Under the pieces are notes generated by a model, which did no database searches, was not told where the DNA came from, and saw only the letters and a program-made list of their open reading frames with translations. A stretch of DNA of 64,000 bases from an uncultured archaeon (GTDB taxonomy: Archaea; Nanobdellota; Nanobdellia; Pacearchaeales; GW2011-AR1), in the NCBI GenBank assembly GCA_903831045.1, contig CAIKWG010000045.1, positions 3,088 to 67,087 on the forward strand, read 5' to 3'. The position numbers were made by a program, and so were the translations under genes. Below, piece by piece: positions 7,827 through 59,896 of the stretch (positions are counted from its first letter, which is position 1; each line of letters starts with the position of its first letter).

Positions 7827-8141
7827 ATGGAATTTTGTCCCAAATGTGGTGCTGTTTTAGTACATAAAAAAAGTAGTAATGAATGCCCAAGATGTAAATA
7901 TGTAAAGAAAGGCGCAACATCATTAGCAACATCTGAAAAAACTTTTGAAAAAAAAGAGATTGCAATTGTAAAAGACAAAGATAAGGGAATGGATGTAATG
8001 CCAACAACCTATGAAAAATGTCCAAAATGTGGTTGCGATAAAGCATATTTCTGGTCTGTTCAAACACGGGGAAGCGACGAGGCAGAAACAAAATTCTTCA
8101 AATGTGTTAAATGCACTCATACTCGAAGAGATTATAGTTAA
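7827..8141 (+). CDS. tfs: Transcription factor S / RNA polymerase subunit M
   Basis: N-terminal 'CPKCG...CPRC' ribbon. C-terminal TFIIS-type ribbon 'CPKCGC...QTRGSDEAETKFFKCVKC' has the acidic DE loop. Confidence 0.85.
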   Translation: MEFCPKCGAVLVHKKSSNECPRCKYVKKGATSLATSEKTFEKKEIAIVKDKDKGMDVMPTTYEKCPKCGCDKAYFWSVQTRGSDEAETKFFKCVKCTHTRRDYS

Positions 8142-8179: not shown

Positions 8180-8202
8180 CTCACTCTTGCTCAAAATACC
8201 AT

Positions 8203-8277
8203 GGCTCCGTAGCTCAGTCTGGTTAGAGCACTGGACTCTTAATCCAGGTGTCGTGGGTTCAACTCCCATCGGGGCCA
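8203..8277 (+). tRNA. tRNA-Lys (anticodon CUU)
   Basis: Hand-folded cloverleaf: GGCTCCG TA GCTC AGTCTGGTTA GAGC A CTGGA CTCTTAA TCCAG GTGTC GTGGG TTCAACT CCCAT CGGGGCC A. All stems pair. CCA is not encoded. Confidence 0.9.
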
Positions 8278-8295
8278 TAGTTCTTTAAAATAAAT

Positions 8296-8945: not shown

Positions 8946-9548
8946 ATGAAAATACTTGCAGTGGGAGACTTACATGGAGATAGTGGCTTAGCAAGAAAAC
9001 TAGCAGAAAAAGCAAAAAAAGAAAATGTAGATCTAGTAATTATAACTGGAGATTTAACTTTTCTAGAACAATCTACTTATCAATTAATTGGACCCTTTGA
9101 AAGAGAAGGAAAAGATGTTTTGATTATTCCTGGAAACCATGAATCTAATGCTACGATGAATTTTTTAGAATCAAAATACATGAAAACAAAAAATATTCAT
9201 GGAGCTCATTCAGAAAAAAACGGAATAGGATTTTTTGGAGTTGGATATGCAACAACTGCAGGACCTTTTGCAATTGAAGAAAAAGAAATGATGCATTTAT
9301 TAAAAAAAGGTCATGAAAAGATTAAGCATTTAGAAAAAAGCATAATGGTAACCCATATGCATCCAGAAGGAAGCTCTTCTGAAAAAACAGGATTTAAGGG
9401 TTCAAGCTCAATAAAAAAAGCAATCAAAGAATTTCAACCAGATGTTGCATTGTTTTCTCATATTCACGAAGCAGGTGGAGTAGAAGATAAAATTGGCAAA
9501 ACAAGATTGATTAATGTTTCAAGAAAAGGAACTATTTTTGAGATTTAA
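8946..9548 (+). CDS. Calcineurin-like metallophosphoesterase
   Basis: Motifs 'AVGDLHGD', 'ITGDLT', 'PGNHE', 'VTHMHP' and 'SHIHEAGG'. Confidence 0.75.
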   Translation: MKILAVGDLHGDSGLARKLAEKAKKENVDLVIITGDLTFLEQSTYQLIGPFEREGKDVLIIPGNHESNATMNFLESKYMKTKNIHGAHSEKNGIGFFGVGYATTAGPFAIEEKEMMHLLKKGHEKIKHLEKSIMVTHMHPEGSSSEKTGFKGSSSIKKAIKEFQPDVALFSHIHEAGGVEDKIGKTRLINVSRKGTIFEI

Positions 9549-10396
9549 TTTCTCTTTCCAGATTCAAAGGCTCTTCGAGTTGCTTCTTTCATTTTAATTA
9601 AATCTTCTAAAGAAATATTTTTAAAATTATTCTCAAGGTACATTTCAACTGCCCCAATTAAATCTGATAATTCTTGCAAGGCCATTAATTTATTTTCCTG
9701 AGTAACTGCATCCTTAAATTCTAAAAATTCTTCATTAATCTTAGAATAACTTCCTATTTCTCCTTTGGGAATATCCTTTAGATGGTATGATTTTTTTTCC
9801 AATCCCAAAACTTGACTAAGCCTAGGTTCTGCAACACCAGTTCCATATATCCAAGAAAAATTATCGTAATTTCTAAGCCCATAAGATCCAAGTTCAATTT
9901 GACTTTTCTTAGATAGTATATCTTTTCCTTCAAAAGTATCGATTATTTCAATATCAAGATATTTTTTAAAAAAAGACTCTGCTGTCTTTAAAACATCATG
10001 AACATTATTTTCAAATTTGTCCTTAGAAAAGTTCCCATATCCCAAGAAATCAATAAGCTCTACTTTCTCAAACCAATTAAAGTGAAGATTATCAAGAATT
10101 TTTTCATCTCTGAAACAAGGAGTACAACAAACATATTTTCCAGGAACCAATTTATTCTGCATTATTAATTCTAAAAAAGATTGTTCTCCAGAAGCAACAT
10201 TACATCCAAGAAAATTATCAAACAATTTAACTCCTTTTGGAGCAGTTATTGTATTTGCTTTTTCAGAAACAATCCATGGCACTTCAAGATATTCAAAACC
10301 TTCTGAAACATAAAACTCAATAGCATGAGAAATCTTAGAGTAATCTATTTTAAAATTACTCTTCAAAAAGTGTTCCAAATAAGGTTTTAATTCCAT
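9545..10396 (-). CDS. Class II aminoacyl-tRNA-synthetase-like catalytic core fused to MazG-like all-alpha NTP pyrophosphohydrolase domain
   Basis: Motif 1-like 'EGFEYLEVPWIV', motif 2 'CFRDE..LHFNWFEKVE' and motif 3-like 'GTGVAEPRLSQVL'. C-terminal 'EEFLE-x15-ELSD' acidic pairs. No tRNA-binding domain. Confidence 0.55.
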   Translation of the reverse strand: MELKPYLEHFLKSNFKIDYSKISHAIEFYVSEGFEYLEVPWIVSEKANTITAPKGVKLFDNFLGCNVASGEQSFLELIMQNKLVPGKYVCCTPCFRDEKILDNLHFNWFEKVELIDFLGYGNFSKDKFENNVHDVLKTAESFFKKYLDIEIIDTFEGKDILSKKSQIELGSYGLRNYDNFSWIYGTGVAEPRLSQVLGLEKKSYHLKDIPKGEIGSYSKINEEFLEFKDAVTQENKLMALQELSDLIGAVEMYLENNFKNISLEDLIKMKEATRRAFESGKRN

Positions 10397-10952
10397 TTTC
10401 TATTTTTTTTGAATATTTAATAATTTCAGTTAAATCTCTATTTCCATAAATAATTCCAACTTCCCCATCATTAGTTTCCCCCTTGAATTCGCAAGCCACA
10501 CAAGGATTTCTCAGAATAGAATCTTTATCAGGATTAGAATCAATACCCATAGGAGATTTACAAGTATGCCTTAATTTCCAAGTTAATTCTTCTGTTTTCC
10601 GATTATAATTTCCCCCAAGATAGGGATACTTTCCAGAAATCAAAATAGATTCTGGATGAAATTCAATTAGATAATTGATTTTATTTGCATTGACTTTTAT
10701 TTCAGAAATATTTCCATTTTCAATAACCAATTTTGCAAGATTGATTTTAAGCTCTCTATTTGAAGTTTCAAAATACAAATTTAATAGTCTATACTCATTA
10801 TTCATAGCATTATACTTATCCCAAACGTCTCCAGCAAGCTCACTTCCATAATCTTCAACTATACTTTTAGTAAGTTGATATTGATATTCTACTTCTTCCT
10901 TTAATTTTTCTATTCTTTTCTTTAATTCTAGTTCAATTTTTTTATTTTCCAT
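10356..10952 (-). CDS. ORFan, coiled-coil N-terminus (operon paralog family, member D)
   Basis: 198-aa ORF starting with 'MENKK' inside the repeated junction. Its C-terminal 'LTEIIKYSKKIENGIKTLFGTL' resembles the tails of the 11597-13315 proteins. Confidence 0.5.
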   Translation of the reverse strand: MENKKIELELKKRIEKLKEEVEYQYQLTKSIVEDYGSELAGDVWDKYNAMNNEYRLLNLYFETSNRELKINLAKLVIENGNISEIKVNANKINYLIEFHPESILISGKYPYLGGNYNRKTEELTWKLRHTCKSPMGIDSNPDKDSILRNPCVACEFKGETNDGEVGIIYGNRDLTEIIKYSKKIENGIKTLFGTLFEE

Positions 10953-11172
10953 TTTCCACTTCTCCTTCCAAACTTTTTTGTTTTTTGTAAGCTACACAGT
11001 TAAGATAATCGTCACATCCCGAATCACAATCTGGATGACCTTGAGGCATTCCATACTCTCCATAATAGGTTCTTAACGTACAAACATAACTTCCTAAAGA
11101 AGAGTAAAGTAAATCATAACCCTCAAATTGAGAGTATGGACAATCTTTTCCACATTGTTTTTTATTTTCCAT
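10942..11172 (-). CDS. Cys/Tyr-rich mini-protein C1 (CPYS family)
   Basis: ATG at 11172 gives 'MENKKQCGKDCPYSQF...'. It has 6 Cys and ends 'EGEVENGK'. It overlaps both neighbours by 11 nt. Confidence 0.5.
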   Translation of the reverse strand: MENKKQCGKDCPYSQFEGYDLLYSSLGSYVCTLRTYYGEYGMPQGHPDCDSGCDDYLNCVAYKKQKSLEGEVENGK

Positions 11173-11374
11173 TTTCCACTTCCTTTTCTTTTTGCATTCG
11201 ATAAACTTCACATTCAAGATGATTAGTTTTTGGACAAATAAGATATCCTAAAGGTTCATAATAATGATCATAAAGTATTCCTAAAGGAAGACATTGATAA
11301 TTCCCTAGAGAACGCAGAGGATCATAAAGATCAAATTTAGAATAAGGACAATCCTTTCCACATTGTTCATTCAT
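11162..11374 (-). CDS. Cys/Tyr-rich mini-protein C2 (CPYS family)
   Basis: ATG at 11374 gives 'MNEQCGKDCPYSKF...'. It ends 'KEVENGK' and is a paralog of C1. Confidence 0.5.
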   Translation of the reverse strand: MNEQCGKDCPYSKFDLYDPLRSLGNYQCLPLGILYDHYYEPLGYLICPKTNHLECEVYRMQKEKEVENGK

Positions 11375-11600
11375 TTTTGACTTCCCCATCCAATTTAATT
11401 TTATTAAGATATTCTAAACATTTCAAATATTCTACACATTCACATCTCAAAAAGATAGATTCGTTCGCAAGAGCATTCTTATTTTCTTGAATAGTACATT
11501 CCCCATATTCTATTGGAAATGGAATTCCAGGAGAGAGATAATAATCTTCATAGTCAATAAGGACGTAAGGACAACCTTCAGAAAAACTATTTGTTATCAT
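11367..11600 (-). CDS. Cys/Tyr-rich mini-protein C3 (divergent CPYS family)
   Basis: '...SEGCPYVLIDYEDYY...' with 5 Cys; ends 'LDGEVKNE'. ATGA overlap with the upstream gene. Confidence 0.45.
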   Translation of the reverse strand: MITNSFSEGCPYVLIDYEDYYLSPGIPFPIEYGECTIQENKNALANESIFLRCECVEYLKCLEYLNKIKLDGEVKNE

Positions 11601-12124
11601 CCTACCAACATCTCACTCATTTTAATTATATTTTTAAGCTTAGCCATTATAGATGGTTTCAAATTCTTAGATTTATAAAAATCCAATAATTTTTCATAAG
11701 AATTAGGAAAATTTATTCCAGATTTAGAATTATACTCATACAGAACATTCATTTTTCTTTTTGCAGCATCTTCATCCTTTAACAAAATATCAACTGCAAA
11801 TTCTCCTATTGGTTTTGAAGCAGAGAATTTAAATCCCTTAGTATAGAATTCTTCAGGTTTATTCTCTCTATCCCAAGGATGCATAATTTCAAAACCTTCT
11901 TGTAAATTAACTACCTCACATTCTAGCATTTGAGAATAATCAGAAGTGTAAATTTTTAATTCTTTTTCCAGTTGAGAAAAAGATAAAACTGGAAATCCAA
12001 TATTTTCCAAAAACCCTTTCAATTTTTCACTATCCTTAATTTGCTTTTCTAAATCTTTTTTTTCCTGCTCCAAAGATTTAATATAATCATTCATTTCATT
12101 AAACGAAGTTAAAGCCATATCCAT
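11597..12124 (-). CDS. ORFan, coiled-coil N-terminus (operon paralog family, member B)
   Basis: ATG at 12124 lies 1 nt after the upstream stop (track start 12175 overlaps it by 50 nt). The tail 'YEKLLDFYKSKNLKPSIMAKLKNI' resembles A1/A2. Confidence 0.5.
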   Translation of the reverse strand: MDMALTSFNEMNDYIKSLEQEKKDLEKQIKDSEKLKGFLENIGFPVLSFSQLEKELKIYTSDYSQMLECEVVNLQEGFEIMHPWDRENKPEEFYTKGFKFSASKPIGEFAVDILLKDEDAAKRKMNVLYEYNSKSGINFPNSYEKLLDFYKSKNLKPSIMAKLKNIIKMSEMLVG

Positions 12125-12125
12125 T

Positions 12126-12746
12126 TTACCAACAACTCCATTCACTTTCTTCAGGATTTTTCTTCCTAATTTCATTTATTTGATTATAAAGACTCAAAAG
12201 CAAATCCTTCTTTACACCATGATTTTGATAAAATTCAATTATCTTATCAACATGCACAGGATGAGTTCTTTGATATCTCTCCCAATCACCATGAAGAGAG
12301 GCTCCAGAAACAGTATGTTTAGTTTGATATATTACATTCAGATAATCATATGGTCCAACATCGTGCTCATGTCTGCAAAAAATAGGCATCATCAGTTTAG
12401 AGTTTTCATCTTTTAATTCAAAGTAAAAATCAAAAATGCAAAATTTATCTTCATCACTATAATTTATTCCAGAATAATTATAACGCCCTCTTGCTTCTTC
12501 TATTTTAATTTTTTCTGCAAGCGAGTAATCCCTTGAAATAAATTCTTCTCTTTGAAAGCTTTTTCTTGAATGCCCAACCAACCTCTCGTCAGTCAAAGTT
12601 TCTACTAAGATTTCCCCAGAAAATTTCCTTAAAATTTCTGTTTGATTTTTTAATTTTTCAAGATTTTCTAAAATTTCTGTTTGATTTTTGATTCTCTCAA
12701 ATTCTTCTATTTTAGGTTTGAAATATTCTTCTAATTTTTTTGTCAT
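12126..12746 (-). CDS. ORFan paralog A1
   Basis: Clear paralog of 12743-13315 ('RDYSLAEKI', 'FCIFDFYFELKD', 'FCRHE', 'FYQNHGVKKDLL'). ATGA overlap with A2. Confidence 0.55.
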   Translation of the reverse strand: MTKKLEEYFKPKIEEFERIKNQTEILENLEKLKNQTEILRKFSGEILVETLTDERLVGHSRKSFQREEFISRDYSLAEKIKIEEARGRYNYSGINYSDEDKFCIFDFYFELKDENSKLMMPIFCRHEHDVGPYDYLNVIYQTKHTVSGASLHGDWERYQRTHPVHVDKIIEFYQNHGVKKDLLLSLYNQINEIRKKNPEESEWSCW

Positions 12747-13315
12747 CTTCTTCCTCCAAGAATTATTTCAGCAGGCTTTGCTTTTCGAAGATCATTTATT
12801 TGCGTATAAAGGTCAAAGAGAAGTTCTTTTTTTACTCCTTTAATTTCATAAAAACTTATTATTTCATCGAGAGGTTTTGGATGAAATCTTCTGGTAGTTT
12901 CAAATTCATCATAATGACCTCGATAAGAAGTATGAGTATTATAGATAACATTCATTTTATCAAATTCAAGATTTTCATGTCTACAATAAACTGGAATGCA
13001 AAGATTATATTTATCATCTTTTAGTTCAAAGTATAGATTAAAAATACAGAATTCTTCGTCATCTGAATCTTTCACTCCTCCAGGAGTATAGTGCCCAGAT
13101 AGGTTCATTATCTGGATTTTTTCTGCAAGTGAATAATCTCTGGTAATACACTCTGCTCTCTTTCTATCACGCTCATTATATCCAGAAAGCTGATCAGTTA
13201 AAGTATCTATGAATAGCTCTCCAGGAAATTTTTCAAGAAGTTCTTTTTGTCTTTTTATTTTCTCAAGCTCGTCTAATTTAGGTTTGAAGTGTTCGTCTAA
13301 GTTTTTTGTTACCAT
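12743..13315 (-). CDS. ORFan paralog A2 (first gene of operon)
   Basis: 190 aa. Shares 'RDYSLAEKI', 'FCIFNLYFELKD', 'YCRHE' and 'FYEIKGVKKELL' with A1. Confidence 0.55.
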   Translation of the reverse strand: MVTKNLDEHFKPKLDELEKIKRQKELLEKFPGELFIDTLTDQLSGYNERDRKRAECITRDYSLAEKIQIMNLSGHYTPGGVKDSDDEEFCIFNLYFELKDDKYNLCIPVYCRHENLEFDKMNVIYNTHTSYRGHYDEFETTRRFHPKPLDEIISFYEIKGVKKELLFDLYTQINDLRKAKPAEIILGGRR

Positions 13316-13423: not shown

Positions 13424-14266
13424 ATGCTAAACAATGAAACAATTCAAAAAATAGAAAAATTTGTTTCTCAAAAACCAAGAAGTGTTCAAGAGATTGCAAC
13501 ACATCTGGATAAAAATTGGAGAACTGCAGATAGATATATCAAAGAAATTGAAGATGAAACAGGAACAATCTCCACACGAACATTTAGAGAAGGAACCAGA
13601 GGAGCACTAAAAATTGTTTATCTTCTGAATCCAGATAAAATAAGCTCTTCAAAATTCCAAGAAGAATTAGAAGAAAGAATAATGAGACTTAGAAGAAAAG
13701 AAGAATTCTCTGCTTTTGATATATTCCAGTGTGTTCCAGAAAAAAATAAATTAGCAATTGTAGAAGAAGAAATATCCGAAGCATCTACTAATCTTCAAGA
13801 ACTAATATCTATCCTAAATGGAACAGAAAAAGAATTAAAACTCTTTTCAGGAAATCTTTCTTGGATTAATCTAAAAAAAGGAAAAATAGATTTATTCAAT
13901 ACATTAGAAAAACTTGTAAAAAGGGGAGTTAGAATTAAGGTCCTTTGTAGAGTCGATTTAGATGGGGTAGATAATATAAAACAAGTTTTACAATTAAATT
14001 ACAAATATGGGAAAGAACTAATAGAAATAAGACACCGAGAGCATCCAATTAGAGCATTTGTCATTGACAATACATCAATCAGATTGAAGGAAATAAAAGA
14101 ACCAACAGGGAAGATAAAAGAATTAGATAAAAAGAAATTTATCTTTTATACCATCCGAGATAAAGAATGGGCAGAGTGGCTATCAAAGATATTCCTTAAA
14201 ATGTTCAACACATCAATTAGTGCTGAAAAAAGAATCACAGAGCTAAATAAACTCATAAAAAAATAA
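13424..14266 (+). CDS. Putative transcriptional regulator (N-terminal winged helix, TrmB-like architecture)
   Basis: 'PRSVQEIATHLDKNWRTADRYIKEIE' HTH. The C-terminal ~170 aa are unassigned and resemble TrmB-type effector domains only loosely. Confidence 0.45.
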   Translation: MLNNETIQKIEKFVSQKPRSVQEIATHLDKNWRTADRYIKEIEDETGTISTRTFREGTRGALKIVYLLNPDKISSSKFQEELEERIMRLRRKEEFSAFDIFQCVPEKNKLAIVEEEISEASTNLQELISILNGTEKELKLFSGNLSWINLKKGKIDLFNTLEKLVKRGVRIKVLCRVDLDGVDNIKQVLQLNYKYGKELIEIRHREHPIRAFVIDNTSIRLKEIKEPTGKIKELDKKKFIFYTIRDKEWAEWLSKIFLKMFNTSISAEKRITELNKLIKK

Positions 14267-58420: not shown

Positions 58421-59896
58421 TTAAAACTTAGTATTTTGAGAAATAAAAAGTTTAGAAGTACGTAATCTTTTTAAAAAAGTATCCAAGTCCTTTTCCATTA
58501 ATTTTGCCCCAGCTGCCTGTCTATGCCCCCCACCATTTGCGTCTTCAAGACCTTCTGTACATTCTTTCATTAAAAGTGAAACATCAACTATCCCTGCATT
58601 GGATCTTGCATTGGCATGTATTCCATCTTTCCATTTCTGATAAAAAACAAATACCCCTTGATTTTTCATTTTGGAAATCATGGTTGCAATAGTAGAAGAT
58701 AATTTAAAATTAGATACAACTTCATAAATATGCAAATCCTTTTTTTTGTCAAACTTTTCGTTTTCAAAAAAATCATTTACAATCCTTTCTATTTCTTCCT
58801 CTACAATATCATGAACCTGACTCAACTGATCTAAATCACGAGTTTTAATAATTTCATAAACATGCTCCAGAGTTTCATTATAGTAAGTGGTTGCAGAATT
58901 TATCTTTCTAGCATTAATTCCAGGGATAGAACCCGAAATATTATCAAAAGTTATCCCAGGATAAAGTCTTTTCATAATTTCAAAATTTTTTGGAACACGA
59001 TAGGAATAATCCGAGAACATTGCAGCTCCAAGTAACCATTTCCATTCTTCTGTATCAAAAACTCCCTGACCAATATCGTAAATTAACATAGTTGCGCAGT
59101 CTTCACTAGAAGATTTTATTATATTATCTTTAAATTGGAAATTTTCATTCATAGGATGATGATCTAAAATAAAGAAATCCATTTCTTTACTCATTTCTTC
59201 TAGCCCTTCGGAATCTATGGTATCAACTCCAAGGTCACAGAAAAAAACTTTAGTTATTTCTTTTTCATGAAGTTTAAATAAAATTTTCTTAACCATATCT
59301 GCATGTATATCAAAAAATTCAATTTCTACGGCTCCAATATTTTTTGATTCCAATATCTCTTCCAGAAAAACAGCAGAAGCCAATCCATCTACATCGTTGT
59401 GCGTTAAAATTGCAACCTTATCTCTAGGAGTAATCATTCCAATAAATTCATAGAATCTCTTCTTACTCCCAGTTAGATAGTTTATCCAAGGCAAAATTTT
59501 TCCTTGCTCAATTAAAAAATGAATATTTGGAGCAACATTAAACTTTCCTTCCATAATATCTCTAACAAGCAACCATCTTACTTCATGATTCTCATATTCA
59601 AAACCCCTGAAATCACGGATATCCTGATTCAGTTCAACACGAAAATGGTTCAGCTCTATTTCAACATCTTCTCCAGTCACGGGCCTTTTATCAACAGTCA
59701 TCGTTGGTAAACTCTCAAGAATTTTTCCTTCAAAGTTAGTTTCTTCTTTTAATTCCCTTAAGACACAATCAACAAGTTCTTCTCCAGGATGCAGAGTTCC
59801 TCCAGGAAGTTTATAGAATTCATCTTTCCAATCCCTACTAACTAAAAGTCTCCCATCCTTCACAATAACTGGCCCCGCAGCAATGATTTTTTCCAT
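58421..59896 (-). CDS. NUDIX hydrolase fused to DHH/DHHA1 phosphoesterase
   Basis: Nudix box 'GGTLHPGEELVDCVLRELKEETN'. DHH motifs 'THNDVDGLAS' and 'LDHHP'. DHHA1 'GGGHRQAAGA'. Confidence 0.75.
   Translation of the reverse strand: MEKIIAAGPVIVKDGRLLVSRDWKDEFYKLPGGTLHPGEELVDCVLRELKEETNFEGKILESLPTMTVDKRPVTGEDVEIELNHFRVELNQDIRDFRGFEYENHEVRWLLVRDIMEGKFNVAPNIHFLIEQGKILPWINYLTGSKKRFYEFIGMITPRDKVAILTHNDVDGLASAVFLEEILESKNIGAVEIEFFDIHADMVKKILFKLHEKEITKVFFCDLGVDTIDSEGLEEMSKEMDFFILDHHPMNENFQFKDNIIKSSSEDCATMLIYDIGQGVFDTEEWKWLLGAAMFSDYSYRVPKNFEIMKRLYPGITFDNISGSIPGINARKINSATTYYNETLEHVYEIIKTRDLDQLSQVHDIVEEEIERIVNDFFENEKFDKKKDLHIYEVVSNFKLSSTIATMISKMKNQGVFVFYQKWKDGIHANARSNAGIVDVSLLMKECTEGLEDANGGGHRQAAGAKLMEKDLDTFLKRLRTSKLFISQNTKF

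Follow-up and report, generated by a model that had tools for sequence, protein, structure and literature searches.

Paralogs of aminoacyl-tRNA synthetases (aaRSs) that work independently of tRNA are known as a kind, and they have repeatedly given new biochemistry (AsnA, EpmA, HisZ, the amino acid:[carrier protein] ligases, and GluQRS). In a 2022 review of aaRS paralogs, the only entries derived from seryl-tRNA synthetase (SerRS) are SLIMP and the amino acid:[carrier protein] ligases (PMC9437257). Here we analyze a protein that joins a SerRS-like core to a small HisE-like domain of the MazG/HisE superfamily. It is encoded in a 64,000-nucleotide stretch of DNA from an uncultured archaeon (contig CAIKWG010000045.1, positions 3,088 to 67,087), which as a whole we call the window. 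The protein is the fused form of a widespread, near-obligatorily linked two-gene module. What is new about this module is its SerRS-like core of ~180 amino acids (aa), the obligatory HisE-like partner, the recurrent fusion, and a dedicated radical S-adenosylmethionine (radical-SAM) partner.

The fused gene is a single complete open reading frame (ORF) with an ATG start at 9545..10396 on the minus strand, as are all parts of it given below. It encodes 283 aa plus a stop (ORF listing and back-translation), and a protein identical to its product exists in public databases. The original prediction, made from the letters alone, had described a minimal class II aaRS core followed by a MazG-type domain. 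All of the motif strings that it quoted were located in the 283-aa ORF, and each was confirmed by back-translation. These matches are not due to chance, because the motif residues are invariant across homolog alignments.

The N-terminal domain (residues ~14-198; 9803..10357) was delimited with phrog_4806 from PHROGs, which covers residues 14-197 (E=5.8e-39), with an AlphaFold2 (AF2) model, with Foldseek, and with a profile search of Protein Data Bank (PDB) sequences. A profile of the N-domain family matched 16 distinct SerRSs in the PDB and nothing else (best E=3e-5), and the canonical SerRS of a related DPANN archaeon matched the same profile (E=2.9e-7). The AF2 model of the full-length protein is confident (predicted local distance difference test [pLDDT], 94; predicted template modeling [pTM] score, 0.88). 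Foldseek returned 424 PDB matches at E<=1e-3, led by SerRS, PylRS, PheRS, and SepRS (E~2e-8, probability 1.0), and stand-alone phage proteins of 185-196 aa match the model with template modeling (TM) scores of 0.75-0.89. PDB searches found no close homolog with a solved structure. Therefore, profile matches, model, Foldseek, and SerRS alignment agree that the N-terminal half is a class II aaRS core lacking a tRNA-binding module, as predicted. The suggestion that it is an AsnA/EpmA-type paralog holds as far as an aaRS paralog is concerned, but that type is class IIb, and the core is SerRS-like and its PDB profile matches are exclusively SerRS, even though tRNA-synt_2 is its best, weak match in Pfam.

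Conservation in the N-domain was assessed in an alignment of 44 homologs and in a 48-sequence N-domain alignment. P93, C94, R96, F109, K111, E113, E168, G170, S171, G187, A189, P191, and R192 are invariant in these 44-48 homologs, and so are S69 and E71. Motif 1 is EGFEYLEVPWIV (residues 32-43; 10268..10303), where P40 is conserved in at least 90% of the 44 homologs and W41 in all of them; by alignment, its counterpart in the canonical DPANN SerRS is KKGYEYIETPLML. The stretch ASGEQSF (residues 68-74; 10175..10195), with S69, E71, and Q72 invariant, aligns with ATSEQ/GTSEQ of SerRS and is the counterpart of the SerRS "TxE" element. Motif 2, CFRDEKILDNLHFNWFEKVE (residues 94-113; 10058..10117), consists of CFRDE, a short loop, and WFEKVE, and carries the invariant R96, the stacking Phe F109, K111, and E113. 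A manual SerRS alignment places ELGSYGLR (residues 168-175; 9872..9895) at the "E-x-x-S" strand that serves Mg and ATP; E168, G170, S171, Y172, G173, and R175 are invariant in the 48 sequences. The motif 3 region, WIYGTGVAEPRLSQVL (residues 182-197; 9806..9853), has W182, G187, A189, P191, and R192 as its invariant positions. The motif 3 string quoted earlier, YGTGVAEPRLSQVL, falls within it, and YGTGVAEPR occupies residues 184-192. By its motif content, with every ATP/Mg ligand invariant, the N-domain is predicted to be a catalytically complete, minimal SerRS-derived core.

The coiled-coil arm with which SerRS binds the variable arm of tRNA-Ser is not present; the domain begins at about residue 14, the model has no helical arm, and N-domain homologs measure 175-200 aa in total. 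The motif 2 loop, which in SerRS contacts the acceptor stem, has 9-10 residues in 99 of 101 family members, compared with 16 in SerRS, which makes it ~6 residues shorter. The N-domain is unlikely to bind tRNA by itself. Net charge and isoelectric point (pI) are uninformative on this matter, because the family is acidic (pI ~5.3) as are many true aaRSs. Of the positions taken to correspond to serine-binding residues of SerRS, S69-x-E71 and E113 are conserved. In the manual alignment, W182 stands at a Thr position before motif 3, and we take this Thr to be the SerRS residue that contacts the serine hydroxyl. Y172, G173, R175, and W182, all invariant and specific to this family, lie around the presumed acceptor pocket, and we speculate that R175, Y172, and W182 would suit a phosphate-bearing aromatic substrate.

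Two more familiar identities for the aaRS-like protein were rejected. A canonical aaRS is excluded by the missing tRNA-binding domain, the short motif 2 loop, the failure to reach Pfam thresholds, and the presence of a true SerRS near a relative's copy. In that relative (locus L003), the canonical SerRS is encoded 2 kb from the module, so the fused protein is no substitute for SerRS. We also rejected the HisRS/HisZ identity implied by PHROG and RefSeq labels, because profile matches are to SerRS only and a histidine-biosynthesis gene context was not found.

The C-terminal domain (residues 199-283; 9548..9802) is all-alpha and of the HisE/MazG type. It was assigned with phrog_6408, which covers residues 202-282 (E=1e-30; annotated in PHROGs as of unknown function), with TIGR03188, the NCBIfam HisE domain model (E=0.0039), with PRA-PH, and with Foldseek. 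Seventeen of 26 relatives scanned singly matched PRA-PH (E<=0.1, best 7.9e-6), and two matched MazG. An AF2 model of the C-domain alone has three helices and a pLDDT of 90. Its top five Foldseek matches are HisE (1yvw and 2a7w), HisIE (6j22 and 6j2l), and Sulfolobus MazG (1vmg), with probabilities of 0.91-0.98, TM scores of 0.54-0.60, identities of 23-31%, and E values of 0.4-1.0. A C-domain sequence profile had no significant match in the PDB. The best was HisE 2a7w (E=0.25), and in that alignment the conserved N-terminal stretch nonetheless lines up, as do the two acidic motifs.

Alignments of 26 and 29 diverse members define a C-domain core of GYH..I.kG..G..sKI.EE..E..DA ... ELSD..GA ... 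T.RAF..G.R. The first acidic motif is EEFLEFKD (residues 222-229; 9710..9733); its E222, E223, and E226 never vary in the two alignments, and its D229 is fixed in one of them and at least 90% conserved in the other. In the second, ELSD (residues 242-245; 9662..9673), E242 and D245 are invariant in both. The spacing between EEFLE (222-226) and ELSD is exactly 15 residues, as the original prediction had stated, and together these residues make up the EExxE...ExxD metal-binding signature of the MazG/HisE superfamily. TIGR03188, the PRA-PH matches of relatives, and the Foldseek top five support membership of the C-terminal ~85 aa in this superfamily. The earlier "MazG-type" label is thus right at that level, but the domain is closer to HisE (PRA-PH) than to MazG proper. 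From this sequence comparison, we conclude that the C-domain belongs to the MazG/HisE superfamily with HisE closest, and that its predicted catalytic residues are intact.

Between the two lies a linker with the "GYH..I.kG..G..sK" segment (residues ~199-219; 9740..9802). Neither C-domain alignment shows variation at Y204 or K219, and G215 is invariant in one and nearly so in the other. This linker/GYH stretch (18 residues) is coil by DSSP, and in the full-length model its 10-residue blocks average a pLDDT of 92-97. When the C-domain is modeled alone, its first ten residues average only 67. Because the segment is confident only when the N-domain is modeled with it, the models suggest that it docks on the aaRS-like core.

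The two halves are far more often neighbors than a single gene. A tblastn search of 50,697 phage genomes matched 278 phage records, and in 273 of them both halves are adjacent; in most of the phage matches listed, the halves align as separate pieces and so represent two neighboring genes. Large phages predominate, and their lineages are unrelated: Phapecoctavirus, Justusliebigvirus, relatives of Vequintavirinae, T4-like phages of Acinetobacter, Morganella, and Providencia, phiCbK-like phages of Caulobacter and Brevundimonas, Microcystis Ma-LMM01-like phages, jumbo Vibrio phages, and uncultured "huge" phages. Among the annotated phage examples, the short HisE-like gene (~83 aa) precedes the aaRS-like gene (~190 aa) and overlaps its start. 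The cultured Microcystis phage MaMV-DC has a fused gene, ORF129L. We also chose 80 IMG/VR contigs by the aaRS-like gene alone, and the HisE-like gene was in the locus in 76. It was first and adjacent in 35, second and adjacent in 26, near or far in 12, and fused in 3. In the GTDB, the module occurs in DPANN archaea and in the candidate phyla radiation (CPR; Saccharibacteria, WWE3, Woesebacteria, Magasanikbacteria, and Spechtbacterales), and sporadically elsewhere. The fused form, aaRS-like part first, is found in DPANN archaea and some CPR, and the rest are split in either order. The module was not found among the plasmids of PLSDB.

Exhaustive HMM searches gave 1,654 clusters at 50% identity for the ligase family, 1,153 of them at E<=1e-30, and 1,766 clusters at 90% identity for the HisE-like family, nearly all of 81-95 aa. 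Of 256 retrieved proteins, 215 consist of the N-domain without the C-domain and 41 are fusions with the aaRS-like part in front; the reverse order of fusion was not found among them. On a rough neighbor-joining tree of 124 N-domains, the fused state requires at least 7 changes by Fitch parsimony and is found in at least 3-4 parts of the tree that lie well apart; its main clade neighbors lineages in which the aaRS-like gene is first. Fusion thus appears, by this tree, to have arisen independently at least 3-4 times. Independent, recurrent fusion and changes of gene order lead us to predict that the two activities form one machine. Two phage proteins exceed the usual length. CcrColossus gp133 (Caulobacter phage; L042:6236-7090) carries an N-terminal helix-hairpin-helix domain resembling the RNA polymerase alpha-subunit C-terminal domain (alphaCTD; E=3e-6) before the aaRS-like part, and a Brevundimonas phage aaRS-like protein (L045:6230-7351) extends beyond the core to 373 aa by a stretch that could not be assigned to a domain. 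Apart from the alphaCTD-like domain in CcrColossus, longer family members contain no informative extra domains.

We took a census of the genes around the module, covering the two nearest on each side in ~40 non-redundant loci (147 proteins, each scanned against Pfam). The neighborhood is nucleotide-related. The top families were Radical_SAM (7), NUDIX (6), AAA_28 (5), and NrdR (5), followed by metallophosphoesterase, ribonucleotide reductase (RNR), uridine kinase, and thymidine kinase. Single loci add ThyA-DHFR, NDK, and uridine kinase together; thymidine kinase in another; ThyX, a deoxynucleoside monophosphate kinase, and RNR with two other MazG genes; and NrdD/NrdG. Saccharibacteria loci have a winged helix-turn-helix (wHTH)-NUDIX protein and a canonical MazG near the module. 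A carrier-protein family was not among the 25 most frequent of the 99 census families or in the archaeal loci, and his genes were not found in any locus examined. Nor did the loci contain a recurring tRNA or translation family, the sole exception being a gene for a YqeY-type domain, the tRNA-binding domain found in GatB and GlnRS. This gene (L001:7843-8277 in Escherichia phage vB-Eco-KMB37) lies directly downstream of the pair in Stephanstirmvirinae only. When 80 viral loci were clustered, no family occurred in more than 9. Downstream genes of 316 aa and 343 aa in KMB37 and Lazarus proved unrelated. A Vibrio jumbo phage encodes two tRNA-Ser genes 5.5 kb from the module. PADLOC matched neither the fused protein nor the ORFs upstream of it in the window, which speaks against a known defense system.

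A P-loop gene of the AAA_28 family (NadR ribosylnicotinamide-kinase-like) lies directly upstream of the module in a Woesearchaeota genome and in Saccharibacteria genomes (L012:7466-7996, L027:7375-7989, and L029:7354-8010). Phage Hena1 has NMNAT and PnuC ~1 kb from the pair, and locus L135 has an isochorismatase/nicotinamidase-family gene near the module. These neighbors make a link to NAD or nucleoside salvage possible. In the window, a metallophosphoesterase gene (8946-9548, plus strand) runs toward the fused gene, and the two overlap by 4 nucleotides (nt) at the stop codon of the fused gene; members of its family are again found near the module in L003, L005, L007, L048, and L135.

The radical-SAM partner is a small protein (200-256 aa; L003:8808-9509, L005:8822-9487, and L135:6350-6955; also L007, L009, L010, and L012). 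In DPANN and WWE3 loci with the fused gene, a radical-SAM gene of 221-256 aa abuts or overlaps it. A search of 5.8 billion proteins gave only 32 clusters of the family. Its gene is next to the fused gene in all loci examined, and at least 10 of the cluster contigs match, by length, contigs with fused genes. It fits no curated family. Pfam scans recorded Radical_SAM, plus PF13353 in three relatives, and the best matches are weak: MoaA (2e-9), a tungsten-cofactor maturase, viperin (NF038283; E=9e-7, 28 bits against a cut-off of 180), NrdG, and QueE. In the PDB it matched 8wm2, MoaA, BlsE, and TYW1, and in PADLOC a partial stretch matched pVip (~1e-9). These relatives are mostly enzymes with nucleotide or nucleoside substrates. 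The whole 64-kb window has no copy, nor does the closest relative, and we propose that the window's lineage lost the gene. The partner was not found in module-bearing phages; a Microcystis phage radical-SAM protein was considered and rejected because it shows only generic similarity.

The explanation that we favor, although in our judgment it stands an equal chance of being wrong, is that the protein would be a bifunctional tRNA-independent enzyme, the fused form of a conserved two-protein complex. We infer catalysis, tRNA independence, a nucleotide substrate, and the order of the steps from the features above. The N-domain would bind ATP-Mg through its intact motifs 2 and 3 and activate a carboxylate as an acyl-adenylate, releasing pyrophosphate (PPi). 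Retention of the SerRS "TxE" stretch makes an alpha-amino acid the probable source of the carboxylate. With no tRNA arm and a short motif 2 loop, the enzyme would hand the acyl group to a small acceptor and not to tRNA. The six acidic residues of the C-domain would chelate Mg and cleave the alpha-beta bond of a (possibly modified) NTP to a nucleoside monophosphate (NMP) and PPi. The two activities would be physically coupled on one nucleotide-centered pathway, in which the pyrophosphatase may supply an NMP that the ligase acylates or amidates, or may turn an NTP-level product into a monophosphate, as HisE does with phosphoribosyl-ATP (PR-ATP). For carboxylate amidation by a class II core, we take AsnA to be the analogy. 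In most DPANN and WWE3 relatives, a MoaA/viperin-like radical-SAM enzyme would add a third step, sometimes with an AAA_28 kinase-like protein as well.

Several observations weigh against this explanation. The N-domain is below the gathering thresholds of the aaRS families in Pfam: the window protein reaches 18 bits of the required 25 for tRNA-synt_2 (E=0.0016) and 13.7 of 19.8 for tRNA-synt_2d (E=0.045), and tRNA-synt_2b is not matched. Its C-domain likewise scores 17.9 bits against PRA-PH, under the Pfam gathering cut-off of 21.3, and the Foldseek E values of the C-domain (0.4-2.4) are non-significant for a small helical domain. A ligase and a pyrophosphatase both release PPi, and the logic of coupling them is not self-evident. 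ATP-binding residues would be conserved in a pure ATP-sensing regulatory subunit too. Furthermore, phage neighborhoods are heterogeneous, with no consistent third partner found, and the YqeY-type gene adjoins the pair in 113 Escherichia phages.

The same facts can be read in other ways. The protein might be a regulated house-cleaning or deoxynucleotide-pool enzyme in which the HisE/MazG-like part is the sole catalyst (an NTP pyrophosphatase of the dCTPase, dUTPase, or MazG type that would supply or sanitize the nucleotide pool) and the aaRS-like part senses ATP and/or an amino acid, as HisZ regulates HisG. HisZ is a precedent for an aaRS-derived regulatory subunit (PMC9437257). Phage MazG-like enzymes are commonly interpreted in the literature as pool-shaping, and neighborhoods rich in NrdR, RNR, ThyA/ThyX, dCMP deaminase, and thymidine kinase would suit such a role. 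But the motif 2 Arg and Phe, the E-x-x-S strand, and the motif 3 Arg are invariant across more than 1,000 divergent clusters, as is the amino acid "TxE" stretch, and a whole catalytic set is unexpected in a mere sensor; HisZ has presumably lost the class II catalytic residues. We regard the pool-enzyme explanation as unlikely. A role in conflict is a special case of the bifunctional enzyme, or partly overlaps it. Here the radical-SAM and fused proteins of DPANN and CPR would make an antiviral or toxic modified nucleotide in the manner of viperin, and the phage pair would detoxify or counterfeit such nucleotides as an anti-defense. Partial matches of the radical-SAM partner to pVip models (PADLOC, E~1e-9; NF038283, E=9e-7), adjacent AAA_28 kinase-like genes that recall the kinases of some pVips, and a patchy distribution prone to horizontal transfer among phages and symbionts all fit. 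Even so, the viperin score (28 bits versus 180) equals that to MoaA, the fused protein and its neighbors are unmatched in PADLOC, and the window locus sits among housekeeping genes without a radical-SAM gene. We consider both the cellular and the phage side of this account quite unlikely.

It is also improbable that the pair is a split minimal tRNA-charging enzyme that charges, for instance, tRNA-Ser or a phage tRNA and binds it in trans through a YqeY-like protein or the helical C-domain. SerRS is the nearest relative in sequence, including motif 1, TxE, and the KVE glutamate; Stephanstirmvirinae phages have the YqeY-domain gene immediately downstream; module phages are large and tRNA-rich, down to the two tRNA-Ser genes 5.5 kb off in the Vibrio jumbo phage; and the CcrColossus protein bears its alphaCTD-like helix-hairpin-helix domain. 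Against charging, the coiled-coil arm is missing and the acceptor loop of motif 2 is ~6 residues shorter, the position of the Thr taken to contact the serine hydroxyl in SerRS is the invariant W182 (manual alignment), YqeY is limited to one phage lineage, and no tRNA-related family is among the census families listed for the 147 neighbors. Cells with the module also have a canonical SerRS (relative L003), and charging would leave a near-obligatory pyrophosphatase partner with invariant acidic residues unexplained. A peptide-modifying ligase would likewise leave the NTP pyrophosphatase without a role. In the window's lineage, such a ligase would aminoacylate, or modify in another way, small Cys-rich proteins encoded upstream, like enzymes of ribosomally synthesized and posttranslationally modified peptides (RiPPs), and the radical-SAM enzyme of relatives would target these peptides too. 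Small paralogous Cys-rich ORFs are indeed co-directional with the fused gene and overlap it, are kept in L048, and have a weak relative near the radical-SAM gene in L007. Yet they are limited to a few close archaeal relatives, phages and CPR carry the module without them, the radical-SAM partner is small, and Pfam scans did not report a SPASM-type peptide-maturase domain in it. We give this last possibility very little credence, and a bifunctional, tRNA-independent enzyme remains the explanation that we carry forward.

Those upstream ORFs belong to a block of seven small, overlapping, co-directional ORFs (198, 91, 75, 77, 192, 206, and 190 aa; 10356..13315, minus strand; ORF listing), the last of which overlaps the start of the fused gene by 41 nt. 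The block contains two paralog sets, Cys-rich proteins of 91, 75, and 77 aa and a 206/190-aa pair with 45% identity. It is kept in the closest relatives (L048 and L049). Two of its families also occur in L135, where small-ORF families are followed by an intact fused gene and then the radical-SAM gene. None of the ORFs was matched in Pfam, NCBIfam, PHROGs, or PADLOC. In the window's sub-lineage, these ORFs and the fused gene probably form one operon. Beyond them, at 13424-14266 on the plus strand, the window encodes a 280-aa helix-turn-helix (HTH)-like protein with weak matches to DUF7342, Csa3, and DrmC-like proteins. This protein is conserved beside the fused gene in six archaeal loci; its gene is divergent and adjacent in L005, L007, and L135, and the small-ORF block intervenes in the window. 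It may be the regulator of the operon.

The window itself is part of a cellular archaeal genome. It encodes MCM, CDC48, an ATP-dependent DNA ligase, and a topoisomerase, and it is syntenic with Nanoarchaeota/Woesearchaeota-type DPANN contigs. A prophage or mobile island is unsupported, because the flanks are archaeal housekeeping genes and synteny is kept in relatives. ValRS, MetRS, AsnRS, and AspRS had been reported in the window, which holds in substance: we found a class I enzyme of the ValRS/IleRS type, MetRS, and a class IIb aaRS of the Asp/Asn type. A 104-aa zinc-ribbon protein (7827-8141) is the counterpart of TFS-type genes, copies of which in relatives match Zn_ribbon_TFIIS. A tRNA-Lys(CTT) gene (8202-8278, plus strand), flanked by the zinc-ribbon gene and one for a small wHTH protein, is 1.3 kb away from the fused gene. 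No integrase was seen near the fused gene or the tRNA-Lys gene, in an analysis that included no search aimed at integrases or repeats. Elsewhere in the window (58421-59896, minus strand), a 491-aa protein with an N-terminal NUDIX domain and a C-terminal DHHA1 domain (DHH-family phosphoesterase) is a further nucleotide-hydrolase fusion in the same genome.

The literature that we found by full-text searching does not recognize the pair, and a comparative survey of jumbo phages does not mention it. In phage genome papers the two genes appear as separate entries, one as "SerRS," taken for a translation gene, and the other as "MazG." In RefSeq and GenBank the ~190-aa aaRS-like gene is labeled "histidyl tRNA synthetase" or "seryl-tRNA synthetase" (NC_019406, NC_048828, and NC_049493), and its HisE-like partner "hypothetical" or "MazG-like"; because of the SerRS/HisRS label, papers then count the aaRS-like gene as a translation-related auxiliary gene. 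The fusion had been put forward as undescribed. We did not find the combination in the literature either, but the fusion is one form of a common two-gene module, so that the architecture is common and yet uncharacterized.

The module is found in 278 phages, including many genetically tractable phages of E. coli and Acinetobacter, and it persists in CPR and DPANN organisms, whose reduced genomes tend to keep genes that matter. We think it possible, with the balance on the negative side, that phages and ultra-small symbionts use the pair to make or process a new class of metabolite, such as an amino-acylated or amidated nucleotide. Equally tentative is the accompanying idea that in DPANN the viperin/MoaA-like radical-SAM enzyme elaborates the product. 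If this is so, the metabolite would serve nucleotide-pool or nucleic-acid modification, or virus-host conflict, and among natural class II aaRS cores that are catalytically complete this one (~180 aa) would be the smallest, of direct relevance to minimal "urzyme" synthetases. We see a substantial, though less than even, chance that the module represents new chemistry. Identifying the substrate could reveal a new nucleotide modification or salvage step, and solving the module would correct a widespread misannotation and give a natural minimal class II core for enzymology and evolution.

Among known systems, the catalytic domain of SerRS (class IIa) is alike in fold, motif 1, SGEQ versus TSEQ, CFRxE...FxKVE, E-x-x-S, and the motif 3 Arg. 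In contrast to SerRS, the window core has only ~180 aa, lacks the coiled-coil arm, has a motif 2 loop ~6 residues shorter and several trimmed loops, and has Y172, R175, W182, and Y184 as family-specific invariants in the presumed substrate pocket. It is also sub-threshold in Pfam and always paired with a HisE-like protein. The SerRS-like amino acid:[carrier protein] ligases (Mocibob et al. 2010, cited in PMC9437257) resemble it in being class II, SerRS-derived, devoid of a tRNA-binding domain, and presumed to form an adenylate and to use a non-tRNA acceptor, but they derive from the zinc-dependent methanogen-type SerRS, have ~300 aa, and lie beside carrier-protein genes. Here the obligatory partner is a pyrophosphatase, and a carrier protein was not found among the census families listed. 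AsnA, EpmA/PoxA, and HisZ are likewise stand-alone class II cores reused for small-molecule or protein substrates or for regulation, AsnA amidating a carboxylate through an adenylate. They differ in origin (AspRS, LysRS, and HisRS, respectively) and size (270-330 aa), and no member of this group is tied, by fusion or by obligatory genetic linkage, to an NTP pyrophosphohydrolase.

On the other side of the module, HisE (PRA-PH) and the MazG superfamily share with the C-domain a small all-alpha bundle and the EExxE...ExxD signature, and "SY..L..G...KK.EE" of HisE aligns with "GYH..I.kG...sKI.EE." Unlike HisE, the C-domain has an extra invariant C-terminal helix end ("T.RAF..G.R") and the "GYH" N-terminal peptide, has no histidine-biosynthesis context that we could find, and is always linked to an aaRS-like core. 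We know of no modified base in the phages that carry the module. PurZ, an ATP-dependent ligase, is a homolog of adenylosuccinate synthetase and is not aaRS-like. As a scheme, the nearest analogies are presumably MazZ-PurZ of Z-genome phages and the dCTPase and dCMP hydroxymethylase of T4, which lie in clusters of nucleotide-metabolism genes and in which an NTP pyrophosphatase feeds an NMP to an adjacent modifying enzyme.

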